Shown: positions 13,656 through 21,877, numbered from the stretch's first letter. The stretch is DNA of 64,000 nt from Vulcanimicrobiota bacterium (GCA_963820825.1 CAWGBN010000006.1:608001-672000); one strand, 5' to 3'. The notes: a model not told the origin generated them from the letters alone. Program-made: numbers and translations.

Positions 13656-13972
13656 TTACTCCGCGGCCTCTCCAGAAATGACGGCGAGCTGAGTGATGTT
13701 CTTCGCGCGCCGGGCGTACTCTTCCGGTGAGAGATTTCCCAGCGAGCTGTGCGGGTGATTGGCGTTGTAATCGCGGCGCCACGCCGTGGCCTGCACGCGG
13801 GCATCCGCAAGCGATCGGAACCAATTCGGGTTGAGCAGTTCCTGTCGCACGCGGTTGTTGAACGATTCGCAAAAAGCGTTATCTGACGGGCGCCCGGGCC
13901 GCGAGAAGTCGAGCTTCACCCGATTCCAGTAGGCCCACTGATCCAGCTGCAAAGATACGAACTCTGGGCCGT
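13656..13972 (-). pseudogene. IS3 #2 OrfB C-terminal part
   Basis: GPEF...SRPGRPSDNAFCESFN...YNANHPHSSLG. Confidence 0.9.
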
Positions 13973-14050
13973 GATACATACAAGACGGGGCGCTGCCCCC
14001 ATGGCGAACGGAGGTGTATCTGACTCATCTCCGCTGGAGGCAACGACCCT

Positions 14051-15313
14051 ATGGCAAAGTTCCGTGCTGCTCCAACGACGCCCGCCTGGCTCGCAATCGA
14101 CGTCGCCAAAAACCGACACGTGGCGCTGCTGGAGGACGAGGCCGGCATTCGCCGGCGTTTGACAGTTCCAAACACGCAAGAAGGTTTCGACGAGTTGGCA
14201 GGGATTCTGGCGCCGCATCTTCCCTGCGAGGTCGCGCTGGAACCAACCGGAGACTATCACCGACCCCTGGCGAACTTCTTGCTCCGGCGAGGCCACCGCG
14301 TTCATTTCGTATCGTCGATCGCTACAAATCGGACGAGAGAAGCGCTGTTCAACTCGTGGGATAAAAACGATCCGAAGGATGCGCAGGTGATTCTGCATTT
14401 GCTCAAGAGCGGTACAACGCAGGTGTTCGCCGATCCACTGCAACGTGGCAACCAAGATCTTCAGGAACTGCTCGGTACCTATCGGCAGATCACCGACCGA
14501 AAGACGCGAGCCTACCATTCGCTGATGACGCACTATTTGCCGCTGTACTTCCCGGAAGCAGAGCCCTTCCTGAGCAATCCGCGCGGCGAGTGGTTCTTGG
14601 AGGTCATGCGCATAGCGCCATGCCCTTCCACGGTCCTTCAATATACCAAAAGGACATTCGTCAAAAGGTTTACTGCAGCGGGAGGGCATTTTACATCTCG
14701 GCAAAGTCTCGTCGCCAGCTACTACGAAATTGCCAAGGAAAGCGTGGGAATTCCAGTGGCGGCGGATTCGCAGGCCGCCCAGATGTTCCAACTCGCGATT
14801 GAGCAGTACATCGGCCTCATGAAGCTTCGACGGCAGCTTCAGGAGCTCATTGACGCACAACTCGAGAACAACATCGATTATCAGCGCCTGCGCTCTATCC
14901 CTGGAATCGGCCCTATTGTTGCTCTAACGGTTCTCGCTGAAGGCGGAGATTTACGCCGCTTCAGCCACCATCGCAAATTTCTTAACTACTGTGGCCTTTC
15001 TTTGTCGACGATGCAATCCGGAACGTCACGCGGCCGACCGCAGCTCTCCAAACGCGGCAATGCTCGACTGCGATGGGCCTTCTGGATGGCAGCCAATGCT
15101 GCCATCAATCAGCGCCGAAACTCGTTTCGGAAAAAGTACGACGACTACGTTCGTCGCGATCCACTGGATGCCGATCTCAAAAGAAGAGCGTATGTCGCCG
15201 TAGCAGCGAAGATTGCGCGCGTCGCTTACGGCTTGATCAAATCTGGAAAAGAGTACCGCCACTATTTCGAAGCGGCGGTGCACGACGGGAGAATCCCTTC
15301 GCTGGGCCGTTGA
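14051..15313 (+). CDS. IS110-family transposase/recombinase (DEDD RuvC + Tnp domain)
   Basis: LAIDVAK, ALEPTG and KNDPKDA (DEDD); IPGIG; QSG catalytic Ser; SKRGNARLR. GGAGG RBS upstream. Confidence 0.95.
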   Translation: MAKFRAAPTTPAWLAIDVAKNRHVALLEDEAGIRRRLTVPNTQEGFDELAGILAPHLPCEVALEPTGDYHRPLANFLLRRGHRVHFVSSIATNRTREALFNSWDKNDPKDAQVILHLLKSGTTQVFADPLQRGNQDLQELLGTYRQITDRKTRAYHSLMTHYLPLYFPEAEPFLSNPRGEWFLEVMRIAPCPSTVLQYTKRTFVKRFTAAGGHFTSRQSLVASYYEIAKESVGIPVAADSQAAQMFQLAIEQYIGLMKLRRQLQELIDAQLENNIDYQRLRSIPGIGPIVALTVLAEGGDLRRFSHHRKFLNYCGLSLSTMQSGTSRGRPQLSKRGNARLRWAFWMAANAAINQRRNSFRKKYDDYVRRDPLDADLKRRAYVAVAAKIARVAYGLIKSGKEYRHYFEAAVHDGRIPSLGR

Positions 15314-15500
15314 GGCGACTACGACCTCGTAGATAATGCTCGGATCTCCCGATCGGCAGCAAACTCCGTTTTGAGCTCGGTGAAGGCTCGTTTCCGAGAC
15401 CTTGTGTCATCATGGTTGGAGCTATTGCGTCGTCGAGGGGCATCTCGGCAAGGGTGTGCAAGCTCGGCTTTGCTGTCGACGGGCATCGTTATGCCTACTA
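15286..15500 (+). ncRNA. Candidate bridge/seek RNA of the IS110 element (3' non-coding end, overlapping the stop codon; 3' boundary uncertain)
   Basis: Stem 15286-96/15342-51 encloses guide CTGGGCCGT (15302-10), inner hairpin GAGG/CCTC and guide GATAATG (15332-38). The guides match both insertion targets. Confidence 0.75.
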
Positions 15501-15525
15501 GTGGGGTTGACTTTCGTACTTAGCT

Positions 15526-16078
15526 CGTTATCGCAGTGGATCCGTTGCGGTGATCCACGCTCGGCAACGAGGCGGCGAAGTACCTCGACGACGTCGGTCG
15601 ATTTGAACCCCGAGGCCACCTCGAGGGCAAGGCTCTCGCGAGTAAATGAATCGACTATGGTTAAAAGGCGAATCTTGGTGCCGTCAGCGAGCACGTCGTG
15701 CATGAAGTCCATGGCCCAGCTCTGATTTGGCGCGCTGGGTACGACCCGTTCTGTCCGCACGACTGCGGCGCGCCGGCGTTTGGGTGTTTTCGTACGGATT
15801 GCGAGGTTTTCTTCGCGATAGATCCGCCGCACGCGCTTGCGATTGACCTGCCAGCCTTCACGCCGCAACAGGATCGTGATCCGTTCGTAGCCGTAGCGAA
15901 TGCGCGTGTGAGCGATCTCCTTGATCCGAGCGCGCAGAATGGGATCGTCGCGCTTGACGGGGCAGTAGTGCACCATCTTGCGATTGATGTCGAGTACGAC
16001 ACACGCCCGCCGTTCGCTCAAGCGCCAGGCCTCGCGCACCTTTGGCAGCATGACTGTGCGGCGCACCTGCCTCACCAC
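15526..16078 (-). pseudogene. IS3 #2 OrfB N-terminal part
   Basis: RYGYERI, WAMDFMHD, IVDSFTRE; ends at IHCDN at the IS110 junction. Confidence 0.9.
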
Positions 16079-16338
16079 TTTTTTTTAACGACGTCCTGCA
16101 AGACCTGACGATCCAGCGTCAGATCTGCAACGAGTCGCTTAAGGCGCGCGTTTTCGTCACGTAGCTGACGCAACTCGCGGATCTCCGGCGTTCCCAAACT
16201 GCCAAAACGCTTGCGCCAGGCATAAAACGTTGCCTCGGAGATTCCCAACTTGCGGGTGATATCGGCGATCGGCGTGCCGGCTTCGGCTTGGCGCAGGGCT
16301 GCGGCGATCTGCTCGTCGGAGTAGCGGGACTTGCGCAC
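16072..16338 (-). CDS. IS3 transposase OrfA
   Basis: MRKSRYSDEQI...ENARLKRLVADL...KKKW. Confidence 0.92.
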   Translation of the reverse strand: MRKSRYSDEQIAAALRQAEAGTPIADITRKLGISEATFYAWRKRFGSLGTPEIRELRQLRDENARLKRLVADLTLDRQVLQDVVKKKW

Positions 16339-16414
16339 GGGCGAACCTCCTGTCGGTCGGTGTTCGCCGCCATTTTCTAGTTATCCGTGGCGTAAAATCT
16401 TGGGAGAAGACCCC

Positions 16415-16900
16415 GGTCCCTACGGCGTCCGTGTCATAGGTGCAGCTTGCAACAACTCCCTCTTTTTCAGTGGAGGCGCTGGCGGAGAATTTCTGACGCC
16501 GACGCAGCAGTACGGCATCTACGTCGAATCCGCCACGCAGGAAAACCTATTCATTCATAATTGCGATCTCACCGGCAATCTGAGCGCGGCGGTGTCGGCC
16601 GCAAGCCCTCCGACAAACCTGCAAATTACGGGGTGCGCTGGCTATAACGACCAAGGCGTCGTGGTCCGGAACGTTATCCCGCCGACGGCCACCACCTTTT
16701 TCAGCTACAGCTTTACCACACCGTATTACGGCCCCGTCGAGTTTTACGTCAGCGGGGTCTCGGGAGCAATCTCGCAAATCAGCATCGACGGGCACGCAAC
16801 GCCGCTGAAATCAGGGAGCTTCTTTCTCGCCCCTGGCGAGAACGCCGAGATAACGTGGTCGGGAGTGTCCTTCCCGATTTTCCTGATGATCGGGAAGTGA
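16415..16900 (+). pseudogene. 3' fragment of a beta-helix (pectin-lyase-like) protein, 5' end removed at the IS3 boundary
   Basis: Protein-like frame (QQYGIYV, IHNCDLTGN, ITGCAGYN) begins exactly at the IS end with no native start. Confidence 0.55.
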
Positions 16901-17143
16901 CTAGCGATCTCTAAACGGCAGAGCGTGCACTCTAAATGTGCTGAGGCGCCGGGCGAGTGGCAACTGCTGAGACCGACTGACGCGTAACCTCGGTCGCTGG
17001 TCAAAACCGGAACTGCGCGGGCTCTTCTGTAGTATCCCATGGGATTTGCCGCGGGAGGTCACCCTGAGCCTTTGGCAGCATCCACGATCCGCCGCGCTCG
17101 GCTACACCCTTCGCGATAGTTTTTAGGTCTTGGAGAAAATCGA

Positions 17144-17335
17144 ATGGCATCTGCAGCGCTCCGCCATCAGTCGCTAAGTATAAGCGCTGCCGCGACATTG
17201 CTCGCGGGGTGCAGTGGATCACAGTCGCCGATCGGCGCGGACGGTGCATCGGCCGCAAGAACGGCCTTCTTACTCGCCGTGGGGAAGGTCCTGGAGACCA
17301 TGCTCGACGAGTTGCGTACTATTACAACGATCTAA
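17144..17335 (+). pseudogene. Orphan lipoprotein leader (truncated secreted-protein gene)
   Basis: GGAG RBS, then ATLLAGCSGSQSPIG signal peptide and an early stop. Confidence 0.45.
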
Positions 17336-17348
17336 CCAGAGGTGCCCC

Positions 17349-17804
17349 TTGAACGAGCTGGGAGCGAACGAAGACCTACGCGAAGCGCGGCAAAGTTACT
17401 TCGAGCAATACGCGTTTCCGCTTTTTAGCCACATCGACTTTCGCGTGAGCAATGCGCAGGCCGTCCGGCCTTTTTACGACGCACTCATGGCGCTGTTTGG
17501 CACCGACCCCACGACCGTACGCGTTGCGCGCTACGGATATACTCGGCGCTACGGATCAGTCCGTGCTGATTTCTTCAACGTTTTCGAAGATCCACAGGCA
17601 CGCCCAACGCCAACGCGCATCGCTTTTGCGGCGCCGAGTAGAGCTTTCGTAGACGAGGTCGCGCGCGTCGTCCGCGAACACGATGCTAGGGATGTCGAAG
17701 GTCCCGCCTATTTCGAGCAGCACCACCCAACGTTCTACGCGGTCTTCTTCGAAGACCCGTTGGGCAACCGCTTCGAGGTTTGCCATCACCGGATGGATAG
17801 ATAG
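17349..17804 (+). CDS. VOC/glyoxalase family protein
   Basis: FSHIDFRV, RIAFAAPSRAFVD and FYAVFFEDPLGNRFEVC motifs. Confidence 0.85.
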   Translation: MNELGANEDLREARQSYFEQYAFPLFSHIDFRVSNAQAVRPFYDALMALFGTDPTTVRVARYGYTRRYGSVRADFFNVFEDPQARPTPTRIAFAAPSRAFVDEVARVVREHDARDVEGPAYFEQHHPTFYAVFFEDPLGNRFEVCHHRMDR

Positions 17805-17871
17805 GCAGCGACAGTATCGACGCCGACGAAGCTCGCAAAACCTCGCATATTGGCGGAAACGGCGTGATATC

Positions 17872-18282
17872 TCAACTCATTGGATTAGCATTCGGCGCCT
17901 TTGAACGTCGCAGATTCCATAACCCTTGCGCTGAGAGGATAGCGGAGAAGACCGAGGTCACGGCGAGCGCGAGGAGAGTCCAAACGAAGAAGAACGCTCC
18001 ACTGGACTCAGCGAGCGTGCCGGCCGGCAGTCCTCCTGCTCTGCTCACGTGAACAGTGAAAACTACCATGCCCGCGACCGATCCGAGGAGCATGATCGCG
18101 TGCCCCGATCGCCGCTCAGCGAGCACCAGCGCCCCGTATAGCCAGATGACGAGGACAGCGATCGCCACGACGTTTGAGGCCGGTGACCTATCGGTCCCAT
18201 AGACGATATCATCCGTCAAGTGAAGCGAGAGGAGGGTGATCGAGAGCAGAGACATGATGGTTAAGACATTGTTGCGCTTCAT
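17872..18282 (-). CDS. Small 4-TM membrane protein
   Basis: Four hydrophobic segments; HLTDD motif. Confidence 0.7.
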   Translation of the reverse strand: MKRNNVLTIMSLLSITLLSLHLTDDIVYGTDRSPASNVVAIAVLVIWLYGALVLAERRSGHAIMLLGSVAGMVVFTVHVSRAGGLPAGTLAESSGAFFFVWTLLALAVTSVFSAILSAQGLWNLRRSKAPNANPMS

Positions 18283-18537
18283 ATGGGATAAGTTTACTAC
18301 ATAACGGCCTTCAAACTTCCGGTCGGGGCCCACCGCGGTCTTTCGGGGACATTTTCGCCCGCCGTTGTCATAGATAACTACATTGGTTAGAAGTGAATAG
18401 TTGGCCGACCTTAAGCACTCTCGTTTGTCTTCGAGCGAAACAAGAGCGTCGAGCTCAGTGGCGTTGGGATAGGTTTCTCGGAGCGGAAACTGGAGGCCAG
18501 AATGCCGTGCGCTTGGCGCTTCTCGGCCATCGCGCCA

Positions 18538-19005
18538 TCAAAGATCCTGAGCCTGGACAAGATTACAGGAAAATGCAAGGGTTTTACTCTTGTTGTAGAC
18601 CGCCAAGGCGACTAAGCCGACGGTATCAGCATACGCCGTCACAGACGTGGTCCCAGTCCTGTCGTTCGTGTCGGCATATATCTGAACTGCGTAACGACCC
18701 GACGGTACCGTGATTGTTGAACTGCCGCTCCACGTCCGGACGTTAGTCGATCCGTCGGGTTGCGTCAGCCGTAACTCAAATGATCGCGATGGCCGGAAAG
18801 GAACGGCAATTGGCGTCGTCGGGAAGGAACGTAGTGAGCCATCGGAGTTGAACACACCTACGAACAAGATGTCATGTGCGCCATCGTACGCCTGTAAAGT
18901 GGTATCGGATAAAGTCGACGGGAAACCGTTATACGTCTCGGTAACCGTAAAGTAGGGGCCATCATCGCCATAGCGGTGAATTTGCATTGTATAGTGGCGC
19001 CCCGA
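18538..19005 (-). pseudogene. 3' part of an unknown gene fused to an IS3 orfA start
   Basis: The ORF begins with IS-derived MRKSRF and continues in unrelated beta-rich sequence. Confidence 0.45.
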
Positions 19006-19100
19006 TCTGAATCGGCTCTTTCGCATGTGAGTCTCCTAGCCGGGCTGTACGCCCGAGAACTCACAGTCTCCGTCTGTCCCGAATCCGCGCCTACCGGTCA
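19005..19100 (-). mobile_element. IS3-family left-end remnant (#4)
   Basis: TGAC end and ACTGTGAGTT..CTAGGAGACTCAC leader almost identical to IS3 #1 (11151-11187), then MRKSRF only. Confidence 0.75.
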
Positions 19101-19198
19101 GGACCCAGATCACTGGAAATCGCGGGGTTTGAGCCCCGGAATCTAGTCCAATGGGAATTGTGGGTTTCCGGCCAAGATGGCCTGCAAAGGAGACCCGC

Positions 19199-19492
19199 AT
19201 GCGCAAGCGACGCTACACCGAAGCGCAAATCGTCGCGATCCTTCAAGAGCTCGACGCCGGCCGATCCGCAGCTGAGCTCGCTCGCAAACACGGCGTTCAC
19301 GTCAACACGCTGCGACTGTGGCGAAGCAAATACGCCGGGCTCGACATCAGCGATCTCACCCGTCTGAAAGAGCTCGAATCCGAAAACTCGCAGATGGAGC
19401 GCATCATCGCGCGTCAAGCCCTCGAGATCCGCGCGATGTCCGAGGTGATTCGAAAAAACGGGTGGGGCCCTCAGCGCGCAAGGAAGCGGTGA
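19199..19492 (+). CDS. IS3 transposase OrfA
   Basis: MRKRRYTEAQI; homologous to 11188-11481. Confidence 0.9.
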   Translation: MRKRRYTEAQIVAILQELDAGRSAAELARKHGVHVNTLRLWRSKYAGLDISDLTRLKELESENSQMERIIARQALEIRAMSEVIRKNGWGPQRARKR

Positions 19493-20008
19493 GGGCGTTA
19501 GAGGCCGAGGGGATGAGCCAGCGGCAAGCGTGCCGCCTCGCGACCTGCCCCCGACCGACCGTACGATACAAACCACGCAAACGCCCCGGCGACGAGCACG
19601 TCCGCGATCGGTTGCGTTGCATTGCGCAAGAGCGGCCGAGATTCGGATGGCGCCGGCTTAAGATCCTGCTCAAGCGTGAAGGCCTCGTGATGAACCACAA
19701 ACGCCTGCGCCGCCTGTATTGCGATGAGCGATTGCAGGTGCGACCGCGCAAGAAGCGACGCGTGCGATTGGTGCGCGGCAACGTTTCACCGGCTCCGACA
19801 AAGCTCAATGAAGAATGGGGACTGGATTTCATGCACGAAATCCTCATGACCAAGCGCAAAGTGCGGTTGCTGACGATCGAGGACCGCTTCAGCCGCGAAG
19901 GTCTCGCGGTCGACCCAGACTTTTCGATCACCAGCCGCCGCGTAATTCGAACGCTCGATGACATTGCCGAGATCCGCGGTTATCCCACGCGCCTTCGCGT
20001 TGATAACG
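19489..20008 (+). pseudogene. IS3 #3 OrfB N-terminal part
   Basis: RFGWRRL, WGLDFMHE, IEDRFSRE; ends at RLRVDN. Confidence 0.9.
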
Positions 20009-21562
20009 AGCTAAGTACGAAAGTCAACCCCACTAGTAGGCATAACGATGCCCGTCGACAGCAAAGCCGAGCTTGCACACCCTTGCCGAGATGCCCCTCG
20101 ACGACGCAATAGCTCCAACCATGATGACACAAGGTCTCGGAAACGAGCCTTCACCGAGCTCAAAACGGAGTTTGCTGCCGATCGGGAGATCCGAGCATTA
20201 TCTACGAGGTCGTAGTCGCCTCAACGGCCCAGCGAAGGGATTCTCCCGTCGTGCACCGCCGCTTCGAAATAGTGGCGGTACTCTTTTCCAGATTTGATCA
20301 AGCCGTAAGCGACGCGCGCAATCTTCGCTGCTACGGCGACATACGCTCTTCTTTTGAGATCGGCATCCAGTGGATCGCGACGAACGTAGTCGTCGTACTT
20401 TTCCCGAAACGAGTTTCGGCGCTGATTGATGGCAGCATTGGCTGCATCCAGAAGGCCCATCGCAGTCGAGCATTGCCGCGTTTGGAGAGCTGCGGTCGGC
20501 CGCGTGACGTTCCGGATTGCATCGTCGACAAAGAAAGGCCACAGTAGTTAAGAAATTTGCGATGGTGGCTGAAGCGGCGTAAATCTCCGCCTTCAGCGAG
20601 AACCGTTAGAGCAACAATAGGGCCGATTCCAGGGATAGAGCGCAGGCGCTGATAATCGATGTTGTTCTCGAGTTGTGCGTCAATGAGCTCCTGAAGCTGC
20701 CGTCGAAGCTTCATGAGGCCGATGTACTGCTCAATCGCGAGTTGGAACATCTGGGCGGCCTGCGAATCCGCCGCCACTGGAATTCCCACGCTTTCCTTGG
20801 CAATTTCGTAGTAGCTGGCGACGAGACTTTGCCGAGATGTGAAGATGCCCTCCGCTGCAGTAAACCTTTTGACGAATGTCCTTTTGGTATATTGAAGGAC
20901 CGTGGAAGGGCATGGCGCTATGCGCATGACCTCCAAGAACCACTCGCCGCGCGGATTGCTCAGGAAGGGCTCTGCTTCCGGGAAGTACAGCGGCGATTTC
21001 TGAGTCATCAGCGAATGGTAGGCTCGCGTCTTTCGGTCGGTGATCTGCCGATAGGTACCCGGCACTTTGCTGAAGATCTTGGTTGCCACGTTGCAGTGGA
21101 TCGGCGAACGCCTGCGTTGTACCGCTCTTGAGCAAATGCAGAATCACCTGCGCATCCTTCGGATCGTTTTTATCCCACGAGTTGAACAGCGCTTCTCTCG
21201 TCCGATTTGTAGCGATCGACGATACGAAATGAACGCGGTGGCCTCGCCGGAGCAGAAGTTCGCCAGGGGTCGGTGATAGTCTCCGGTTGGTTCCAGCGCG
21301 ACCTCGCAGGGAAGATGCGGCGCCAGAATCCCTGCCAACTCGTCGAAACCTTCTTGCGTGTTTGGAACTGTCAAACGCCGGCAACCCAGGCCTCGTCCTC
21401 CAGCAGCGCCACGTGTCGGTTTTTGGCGACGTCGATTGCGAGCCAGGCGGGCGTCGTTGGAGCAGCACGGAACTTTGCCATAGGGTCGTTGCCTCCAGCG
21501 GAGATGAGTCAGATACACCTCCGTTCGCCATGGGGGCAGCGCCCCGTCTTGTATGTATCACG
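20006..21562 (-). mobile_element. IS110-family element, copy B (transposase frameshifted)
   Basis: Near-identical to copy A, bounded by ACG cores (20006-08, 21560-62). Several indels break the ORF; the 3' non-coding end is unchanged. Confidence 0.95.
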
Positions 21563-21877
21563 GTCCGGAAAACGTCGCCGGCGCGATGCTGCAGTGGTCG
21601 ATCGATCACAATGTTCTGCTGCACTTCATTGATCCGGGAAACCCGCACAGAACGCCTGGATCGAGTCCTTCAACGCTCGCGTGCGCGACGAGTTCCTCAA
21701 CGTGCAAGTCTTCAGGACTCTCCTGCAGATCCGCGAAGAGGCCGATGCATGGCTCGTGGATTACAACGAGGTTCGGCCGCACTCGTCGCTAAACTATCTT
21801 ACGCCCAAGGAGTTCATCAAAACTTTTCTACACCAATCCCACAATCGCCGGTGGACTAAGAAATGGGCTCAAACCCC
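21563..21877 (+). pseudogene. IS3 #3 OrfB C-terminal part
   Basis: GPEN...FIDPG(K)PAQNAWIESFN...YNEVRPHSSL, with a 1-bp deletion near 21638. Confidence 0.85.

Follow-up and report, generated by a model that had tools for sequence, protein, structure and literature searches.

The 64,000 nucleotides (nt) of DNA from a Vulcanimicrobiota bacterium analyzed here (GCA_963820825.1, CAWGBN010000006.1:608001-672000), in the following called the window and numbered from its first nucleotide, contain two copies, A and B, of a 1.56-kb mobile element of the IS110 family. Each copy interrupts the transposase gene of an insertion sequence (IS) of the IS3 family. The two host ISs are unrelated, only the element being alignable between the two loci, and in both cases the interruption falls into codons for the motif D-N-G-P-E. 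The question raised by this locus is what brings one element to the same codons of different genes. Our answer is that the element is very likely an IS110-family IS with a DEDD recombinase guided by an RNA from its 3' end and fixed on the site that encodes the second catalytic aspartate of transposases with the rve fold. It is, in other words, probably an "IS hunter" guided by RNA. An initial annotation, made from the sequence of the window, had assigned the element to the IS110 family, had counted its copies as two independent hits, and had placed both in the codons for the second Asp of the DDE triad of IS3 transposases; on all three points our analysis agrees with it, the codons being those of rve-type transposases, whose catalytic domain is split.

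Insertion Sites in the Genome

A genome-wide search revealed four copies of the element in the 2.98-Mb assembly. Read in host sense, with a slash at the point of insertion, copy A splits TGC GAT AAC/GGC CCA GAG of the host designated IS3 no. 2, and copy B splits GTT GAT AAC/GGT CCG GAA of IS3 no. 3. The third copy, on contig C2, splits TTT GAC AAC/GGC CCA GAG of another IS3, and the fourth, on contig C5, lies inside a second copy of the host IS of copy B. All four copies therefore share the D-N-G-P-E codons of an IS3-family orfB as their position, all are antisense to this gene, and three different host ISs are involved. The initial annotation had read the splits of copies A and B, an ACG core on the host strand and the antisense orientation in the same way, which is confirmed at both junctions (the bases common to both are CG and the next T). 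It had also considered that further copies might sit at unrelated sequences, of which there are none among the four. Since only the element aligns between the loci, except for the C5/copy B pair, which has the whole host IS in common (2760 nt, 98.8%) with different outer flanks, there must have been at least three independent insertion events.

In the rve fold, D-N-G contains the Asp that is second among the catalytic residues, comparable to T-D-N-G-S-N-F with D116 in HIV-1 integrase. In agreement with this, the match of the N-terminal half of the IS3 no. 2 transposase to the rve profile stops at profile position 73 of 102. The N-terminal halves of both hosts in the window match rve (PF00665), and the C-terminal half of the IS3 no. 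2 protein matches rve_3 (PF13683).

Empty sites are available for two hosts. Contig C8 carries an uninterrupted host IS3 no. 2; the two flanks of copy A align with it at 99.8% and 100% and are separated there by CG alone. For relatives of host IS3 no. 3, soil-metagenome contigs (four runs from two studies) join window position 20005 to 21560, a joint that skips 1554 bases and is ambiguous by 3 bases; the shares found in soil-metagenome contigs were only small (0.05–0.13). As the flanks abut at the empty sites, insertion must be precise and without duplication beyond the core. Of the full 17-nt motif, the 2.98-Mb genome has only one further occurrence and the window none. Chance as source of the common site is excluded.

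The Element and its Transposase

The transposase of copy A, a bridge recombinase, exceeds the curated cut-offs for both of its domains, PF01548 (residues 15–168) and PF02371 (residues 278–363). It has the architecture by which the IS110 family is recognized, namely a DEDD RuvC-like domain at the N-terminus and, at the C-terminus, a Transposase_20 domain. D17, E63, D107, D110, and the Q-S-G motif, assigned by the numbering and spacing of IS621, can be seen in the protein. The gene is preceded by approximately 80 nt of non-coding DNA and followed by 214 nt. In the window the two copies appear as inverted repeats in five contiguous blocks that are 98–100% complementary, and between copy A and the copies on contigs C2 and C5 the identity is 100%. 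Only in copy B do five clustered patches of insertions, deletions, and substitutions break the open reading frame (ORF) into pieces of 252 and 305 amino acids, and these frameshifts may be either true decay or consensus error. The adjoining host is affected, too: near position 21633 IS3 no. 3 lacks one C that is present in contigs of four metagenome runs, with the result that its C-terminal frame is shifted after HFIDPG. The stretch comprising copy B and this host is either decayed or poorly polished.

The same Target in Relatives from many Phyla

How general the target is can be judged from relatives of the element. They were taken from a scan of one genome per species, of which the best 80 of at least 583 stretches were used, and from two plasmid loci. 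Their transposases are 45–78% identical to that of the window, and their record titles name Eremiobacterota/Vulcanimicrobiota, Acidobacteriota, Nitrospirota, Planctomycetota, Verrucomicrobiota, Omnitrophota, Bdellovibrionota, Alpha-, Beta-, and Gammaproteobacteria, and others, in total more than 10 phylum-level groups. Junctions were located by pattern and checked against tblastn alignments of the host halves. Right flanks start with TTRTC in 58 of 60 distinct cases; left flanks end in C in 70 of 71 and encode x-E-[FLYW] in 60 of 71; at 46 of the 55 sites with both flanks these features are found together. In the sense of the element the logo reads AAYTCNGNNC, followed by C[G/A] at the left junction, and CG followed by TTRTC at the right junction, the AAYTC positions being kept in 60–66 of the 71 left flanks. 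Every one of these insertions is antisense to its host gene. The target consensus across relatives is GAYAACGGNNCNGARTT. The initial annotation had given GATAACGGYCCRG as the shared target, which is too narrow.

The best NCBIfam matches of 54 distinct N-terminal host halves were IS3 families for 37, IS481 for six, IS30 for two, and a cellular oxidoreductase for one; eight had none. The E-values lie between 1e-5 and 1e-44, and the scores are below the full-length NCBIfam cut-offs because the halves are partial proteins. Within each family the host alignments stop at the same profile position. The hosts are thus not only IS3 elements, as had been annotated, but IS481 and IS30 elements as well, and the targeting, which had been put forward as a trait of this one element, is indeed found in it but is a trait of a whole cross-phylum clade. 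Pfam recognized rve or rve_3 in three of the eight hosts without an NCBIfam match. Four hosts (L016, L022, L026, and L041) gave no NCBIfam or Pfam match in the N- or C-side pieces scanned. These four have ..lPF...G(i/l)DSDNGSEFIN..L.RYC around the insertion in common and, judged from this motif, may belong to an unclassified family of DDE transposases. The same element can be found in different hosts of a single genome, e.g., at L029, L030, and L032.

Not all insertions follow the motif on both sides. L019, L028, L034, L040, L051, and L062 deviate on one side. L039 lies within a gene for a pyridine-nucleotide-disulfide oxidoreductase, at L-D-N-G-R-E-L encoded by CTCGACAACGGCCGTGAGCTC. This one clear insertion into a cellular gene retains GACAACGG..GAGCT, that is, an off-target site keeps the DNA motif, which fits recognition of DNA rather than of protein.

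In a quick IQ-TREE maximum-likelihood tree with six references (ISEc21, IS4321, IS1618, ISEsa2, ISBth13, and ISSep2), for which three of 37 chosen loci (L025, L049, and L075) were left out for in-frame stops, 35 clade members are monophyletic (99 in the SH-like approximate likelihood ratio test) and are separated by a long stem from all references, ISEc21 included. Placing the transposase relative to ISEc21 had been suggested with the initial annotation. The order of the references is unsure because they are very long branches. Among plasmid sequences, identity to the query is at least 45% within the clade and at most 28% for the next relatives. In the plasmid annotations clade members appear as "IS110 family transposase" only or are without a listed feature, and none of the 3412 relatives found at E ≤ 1e-20 among 8000 scored proteins has an informative name. 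The region 3' of the gene measures 192–257 nt in 62 relatives with defined bounds. Inverted repeats exceeding all 100 shuffles are present in 10 of 51 distinct elements, and other subclades have in-register repeats of at least 10 bases; the maximum in the clade is 15 of 16 bases, in L079. In the element of the window no inverted repeat rises above shuffles (best 5/6 bases, shuffle mean 6.1).

A Predicted Two-Loop RNA at the 3' End

The 3' regions of 57 non-redundant elements were aligned, and the alignment was later extended by 48 nt upstream. Three helices are paired in 92.7% of the cells, as compared to 77.4% in shuffles and 37–50% in slid controls, and the covariation score of 0.525 versus 0.23 was reached by none of 500 shuffles. 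The two helices of the donor domain are paired in 93% and 96% of the cells, with 10 of 11 pairs changed on both sides. The left donor guide has the form AG-NN-CG, and its two variable positions match the right end of the element in 96% and 100% of the 57 sequences. The right donor guide is complementary to flank C, core, and first bases of the left end; its variable positions form Watson-Crick pairs in 100% and 94% of 50 sequences (100% with G-U pairs). The internal loop that lies between two of the helices is therefore seen to covary with both ends of the element and is a donor-binding loop in the layout of IS621.

The core opposite this guide is not uniform. At the left junction, 34 of 71 distinct flanks have A as the second base of the core and 37 have G, whereas the right junction has CG in 59 of 59. 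The CA and CG forms have been found for one element in one genome (L059 and L061, respectively). The right donor guide has U opposite this variable base, and it is puzzling that a CA core should arise beside an AAC/GG target.

In the alignment extended upstream a second loop became apparent that has the same layout as the donor loop. Its outer helix is paired in 88% and 76% of the cells across relatives (slid controls 35–71%), and its inner hairpin in 98.5%. On its 3' side the candidate right target guide GAUAAUG, which is nearly invariant, forms a mean of 6.91 of 7 pairs with CGTTRTC over 46 RNA-target pairs, which is the best of 3220 registers (maximum of the reversed-target control, 5.98). 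G-U wobbles are possible opposite both R and the core G. On its 5' side GCCGU is kept in 56, 57, 57, 53, and 57 of the 57 sequences. Since the stop codon of the transposase gene, with which this segment overlaps, falls in at least 10 different alignment columns, the constraint must be on nucleotides rather than on codons. The left target guide is best regarded as a candidate that has been placed mainly by architecture, together with its position, conservation, and loop layout. Other candidates for it, directly after GAUAAUG and in the U-rich stretch that precedes the left donor guide, did not exceed the background in score.

In three relatives (L034, L042, and L055) the right target guide reads GACAAUG instead of GAUAAUG, and all three are inserted at GAC (TTGT..) sites. 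This is what one would expect if the choice between the Asp codons depended on the guide base opposite R, but with G at this position in 41 of 59 sites, three of three cases are not significant.

A further feature of the RNA is a 7-nt segment of the CUUCCAC type (window positions 15346-15352) that can pair with a GUGGAAG-type segment either upstream, which closes the target loop, or downstream, which closes the donor domain. Both pairings (alignment A2, columns 29–35 with 139–145; second alignment, columns 5–12 with 87–93) covary and are formed in 89% and 88% of the cells. The dual pairing may reflect a switch between conformations or base pairing of one RNA copy with another. By eye, a CCACUUGG-type motif is seen after the CUUCCAC-type segment twice, changing in parallel.

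The coordinates of all these features are given in Table 1.

Table 1. The IS110-family element, its predicted RNA, and the host ISs in the window (positions counted from the first nucleotide of the window).
Feature	Position	Strand	Remarks
Copy A, IS110-family element	13970..15527	+	CG core at both junctions (13970-13971, 15526-15527)
Short left end (5' non-coding, ~80 nt)	13972..14050	+	Initial TGATAC = right-donor sequence
Transposase (bridge recombinase) gene, 420 amino acids	14051..15313	+	PF01548 E 7.6e-21, PF02371 E 8.8e-28
Predicted bridge/seek RNA region	15284..15452	+	57-sequence alignments, covariation; overlaps last codons and stop of transposase gene
Target-loop outer helix, 5' strand	15286..15296	+	Pairs with 15342-15351; pairing in the window read from sequence
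Left target guide candidate GGCCGUU	15305..15311	+	= target top strand ..NCCGTT; overlaps stop TGA (15311-15313)
Target-loop inner hairpin (GAGGCG...CGACCUC)	15312..15328	+	GC/AU swaps
Right target guide candidate GAUAAUG	15332..15338	+	Pairs with top strand CGTTRTC
Donor-binding domain	15364..15421	+	Helix 15364-15367/15418-15421, inner hairpin 15383-15389/15396-15403
Left donor guide AGCUCG	15374..15379	+	= last 6 right-end bases including core (15522-15527)
Right donor guide AUCAUGG	15409..15415	+	Complementary to CCGTGAT at left junction (13969-13975)
TTGACT in right end	15505..15510	+	Read from sequence; candidate junction promoter, putative function
Host IS3 no. 2 orfB, C-terminal part, starts PEFVS...	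13659..13967	-	rve_3 E 3e-27
Host IS3 no. 2 orfB, N-terminal part, ends ...IHCD	15530..16078	-	HTH_21 and rve
Host IS3 no. 2 orfA, then A-run slippery site	16119..16373	-	No Pfam match
Host IS3 no. 3 orfA	19151-19492	+	HTH_Tnp_1/HTH_21/rve found across 19151..19999 region
Host IS3 no. 3 orfB, N-terminal part, ends ...RLRVD	19318-19999	+	HTH_21, rve
Copy B	20007..21561	-	99% identical; reading frame broken
Host IS3 no. 3 orfB, C-terminal part (PENVAG...)	21562..21860	+	Read by eye; 1-base frame break near 21633

Outside of these features, ORFs on the plus strand between approximately 11188 and 12436 and a 44-nt stretch that is 75% complementary to host IS3 no. 2 suggest that the window contains a further, fragmented IS3-like element; there is no intact GAYAACGGNNCNGAR site in the window.

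Alternative Explanations

The common context of the copies could be common descent, one ancient insertion into an IS3 having been distributed further together with its host. Copy B and the C5 copy, which have their whole host IS in common, may indeed go back to a single event that was copied afterwards. As a general explanation, however, such hitch-hiking is refuted, and we regard it as extremely improbable: there are 55 distinct reconstructed sites in three IS families with the motif alone in common, only the element aligns between three of the loci in this genome, two hosts are known with empty sites, and single genomes harbor the same element in different hosts. It is also highly improbable that copy B is a mis-assembled or mis-polished image and that there is only one true insertion in the window, which the initial annotation had considered, too. 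Such an artefact would account for the odd, clustered differences and the frameshifts of this copy alone and for the lack in its host of the C found in four metagenome contigs. But copy B has flanks of its own in a different host IS that run into unique DNA on both sides, and the same host IS is found elsewhere uninterrupted, with the joint exactly at the ends of the element. The repeated targeting is, moreover, independent of copy B.

More serious is the possibility that any short site resembling CCGTTRTC is used and that insertions survive and are passed on only in transposase genes that are dispensable and present in multiple copies. As read, the guides span just about 11 bp; 60 GNNCCGTTRTC sites of the genome are free, and among the sites with the 14-nt motif TCNGNNCCGTTRTC none of six in cellular genes is occupied versus four of seven in transposase genes. 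In addition, some relatives lie outside transposases, namely L039 and perhaps L008, L028, L040, L051, and L081. On the other hand, the off-target insertion L039 has kept a match to the distal left motif (GAGCT in place of GARTT), and AAYTC is kept in most left flanks, for which coding constraint can, however, be the explanation. We consider loose targeting combined with survivorship unlikely, but as an alternative to be reckoned with; it would alter the width of the site and not the mechanism. Finally, the transposase protein itself might read the target and the 3' RNA might bind the ends or regulate expression. This is conceivable in that covariation has been found only for the donor loop, the target guides resting on complementarity to a fixed site. 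It is, however, very unlikely considering that the target loop is laid out like the donor loop, which does covary, that GCCGU is conserved at the nucleotide level across reading frames, and that, as far as described in the passages of PMC11208160 and PMC11187229 on them, the RNA selects the target in every tested member of the family (IS621, ISEc11, ISEc21, ISKpn4, and ISPa11).

It should be noted that several findings speak against RNA-guided targeting of this site as we have put it, or at least complicate it. The target is constant across the clade, so that there is no covariation between target and guide to be measured. The left target guide with 5.78 of 7 pairs is by score alone not significant (maximum of the reversed-target control, 5.65). 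GATAAT could also be a -10 box, and a promoter-like TTGAGG-16-GATAAT was called in the window, although only 16 of the 57 relatives match the -35 sequence in 4 or more of its 6 bases. An Rfam scan of 12–23 kb of the window with E up to 1 gave no matches. Single-sequence folds were no better than shuffles (z -0.9 and -0.7) and did not reproduce the comparative model, and the global fold is not settled because CUUCCAC has two alternative covarying partners. Besides the 60 free sites for the short motif, there are nine free 14-nt sites in the genome, six in cellular genes and three in IS3 copies. The guides as read thus under-specify the pattern, and specificity must in addition come from further contacts, from pairing with AAYTC, or from insertions in cellular genes being selected against.

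As to these free sites, the six cellular genes (contigs C2, C6, C7, and C8; L095–L100), among them genes for DNG-containing enzymes, have the 14-nt motif in codons for D-N-G-(A/P)-(E/D), and two of them have ..(T/S)TDNG(A/P)EN.TWPDG in common. The three unoccupied IS3 copies are L093, L094, and L101.

Proposed Mechanism and Implications

From the above the following course of events can be envisaged for the RNA-guided element. It inserts without target duplication at one DNA site, 5'-GAYAA-CG-GNNCNGARTT-3' (the core set off by hyphens), which encodes D-N-G-x-E-F with the second catalytic Asp. In the target loop GCCGU on the 5' side would pair with the bottom strand across the core, and GAUAAUG on the 3' side with CGTTRTC of the top strand, where G-U pairing would let a single guide accept both GAT and GAC as Asp codons. 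The RNA would be released by cleavage from the transposase transcript, at the 3' end of which it lies. The element would move via a circle, at the predicted junction of which TTGACT is followed by 17 nt and then by ATACAT of the left end. TTGAC was by eye also seen at this right-end position in many rows of the 57-sequence alignment (not counted), and by family precedent, which is treated in the discussion of PMC11187229, the joined ends may form a junction promoter.

The insertion splits the host transposase between the second Asp and the Glu, and that IS copy is therefore disabled. Transposase genes, being conserved, multi-copy, and horizontally mobile, would offer a safe and portable landing site. 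The terms "host-neutral landing site" and "hyperparasite", which were used in the initial annotation, are in this sense interpretations.

For a more far-reaching conclusion we see the chances as evenly balanced, namely that we are dealing with a widespread monophyletic lineage of bridge-RNA recombinases in more than 10 phylum-level groups, with a guide fixed on the D-N-G-x-E-F codons of IS3, IS481, and IS30 elements. This lineage would be a standing "parasite of parasites" that inactivates ISs, would have reached the catalytic site independently of ISEc21, and would use a two-loop RNA of the IS621 type that is located at the other end of the element, overlaps with the stop codon of the transposase gene, and has G-U positions in its guide that absorb synonymous variation. 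If so, targeting of catalytic-Asp codons of DDE transposases is not the quirk of one enterobacterial element but a strategy that has been reached at least twice and that in this lineage has been kept across phyla and three host IS families. It would constitute a natural system in which one mobile element curbs others and may explain many of the "split" IS3, IS481, and IS30 pseudogenes in annotations. A single fixed guide appears to tolerate synonymous variation. The clade also offers recombinases of about 420 amino acids with a defined natural target of 15–17 bp and many natural variants of the donor guide.

The principle has already been published for ISEc21. New are the separate cross-phylum lineage with its own target DNA, the IS3, IS481, and IS30 hosts, and the two-loop RNA at the 3' end. 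In the literature searched, including passages of two preprints from 2026, no account of this clade or of its target was found; Supplementary Fig. 11 and the target logos of PMC11187229, which were beyond that search, may show related targets.

Comparison with Known Systems

The precedent for the same insertion position is ISEc21 from Escherichia coli (Siddiquee et al., 2024, Nat Commun, PMC11187229), to which the initial annotation had already pointed. According to the passages of that paper on ISEc21, the two elements have in common a DEDD transposase, a guide RNA, and insertion without duplication, and the position in the host protein is the same. The DNA motif and the orientation, however, are not: ISEc21 splits ...CAT AGC GAC/CAG GGA AGC CAG... 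(CATAGCGAC and CAGGGAAGCCAG on the two sides of the junction, encoding H-S-D-Q-G-S-Q) in the same orientation as the host gene, whereas the element of the window lies antisense in GAYAACGGNNCNGA. The hosts named in these passages are all of the IS3 family (ISCfr6, ISEc92, and ISEc93). The non-coding region of ISEc21 is described as lying 5' of the gene, but that of our element lies 3', as had been noted in the initial annotation. The ISEc21 transposase (358 amino acids) is only 23% identical over 113 amino acids (BLASTP E 0.11) and forms a separate long branch. The ISEc21 cluster comprises transposases of 345–385 amino acids close to TnpEc21 with an upstream non-coding region and H-S-D-Q-G-S-Q as target, none of which applies here. 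The low identity and the monophyly of the clade apart from ISEc21 favor convergence, which had been suggested as a possibility.

Two internal loops, with guides that both include the 2-nt core, characterize the RNA of IS621 (Durrant et al., 2024, PMC11208160). Measured against the parts of that paper describing it, the RNA predicted for the window has the IS621 layout, in which the 5' side of a loop pairs with the bottom strand and the 3' side with the top strand, both including the core; its donor loop fits that of IS621 exactly, and its target loop would pair in this manner. The IS621 RNA, which we compared by description, is located in the left end, whereas here the RNA is found at the 3' end and overlaps with the stop codon of the transposase gene. 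A further difference is that in our case the target is fixed across a whole clade. The transposases differ in size as well, that of IS621 having approximately 326 amino acids and that of the window approximately 420, and the core of IS621 is CT rather than CG.

Conserved sequences of mobile elements are also targeted by "hunters" of the IS1111 group, such as IS4321 and IS5075 (inverted repeats of the Tn21 family) and ISKpn4 and ISPst6 (attC sites). The element of the window resembles this group in its short left end, its long right end, and the location of the RNA downstream of the transposase gene. Subterminal inverted repeats (7–17 bp in the group) are present in part of the clade, but not in the element of the window. 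Its transposase has 420 rather than 330–350 amino acids, and IS4321 can be aligned with it only over residues 259–401 with 31% identity. In the tree IS4321 and IS1618 group apart from the clade, a placement that long branches make unsure. The order of the guides is a match to the bottom strand followed by one to the top strand, as in the IS110 group and the reverse of the IS1111 group as described in PMC11187229. By transposase length and guide order the element is hence of the IS110 type. With its IS621-like two-loop RNA at the 3' end it blurs the split between IS110 and IS1111, which is itself based on the location of the RNA.

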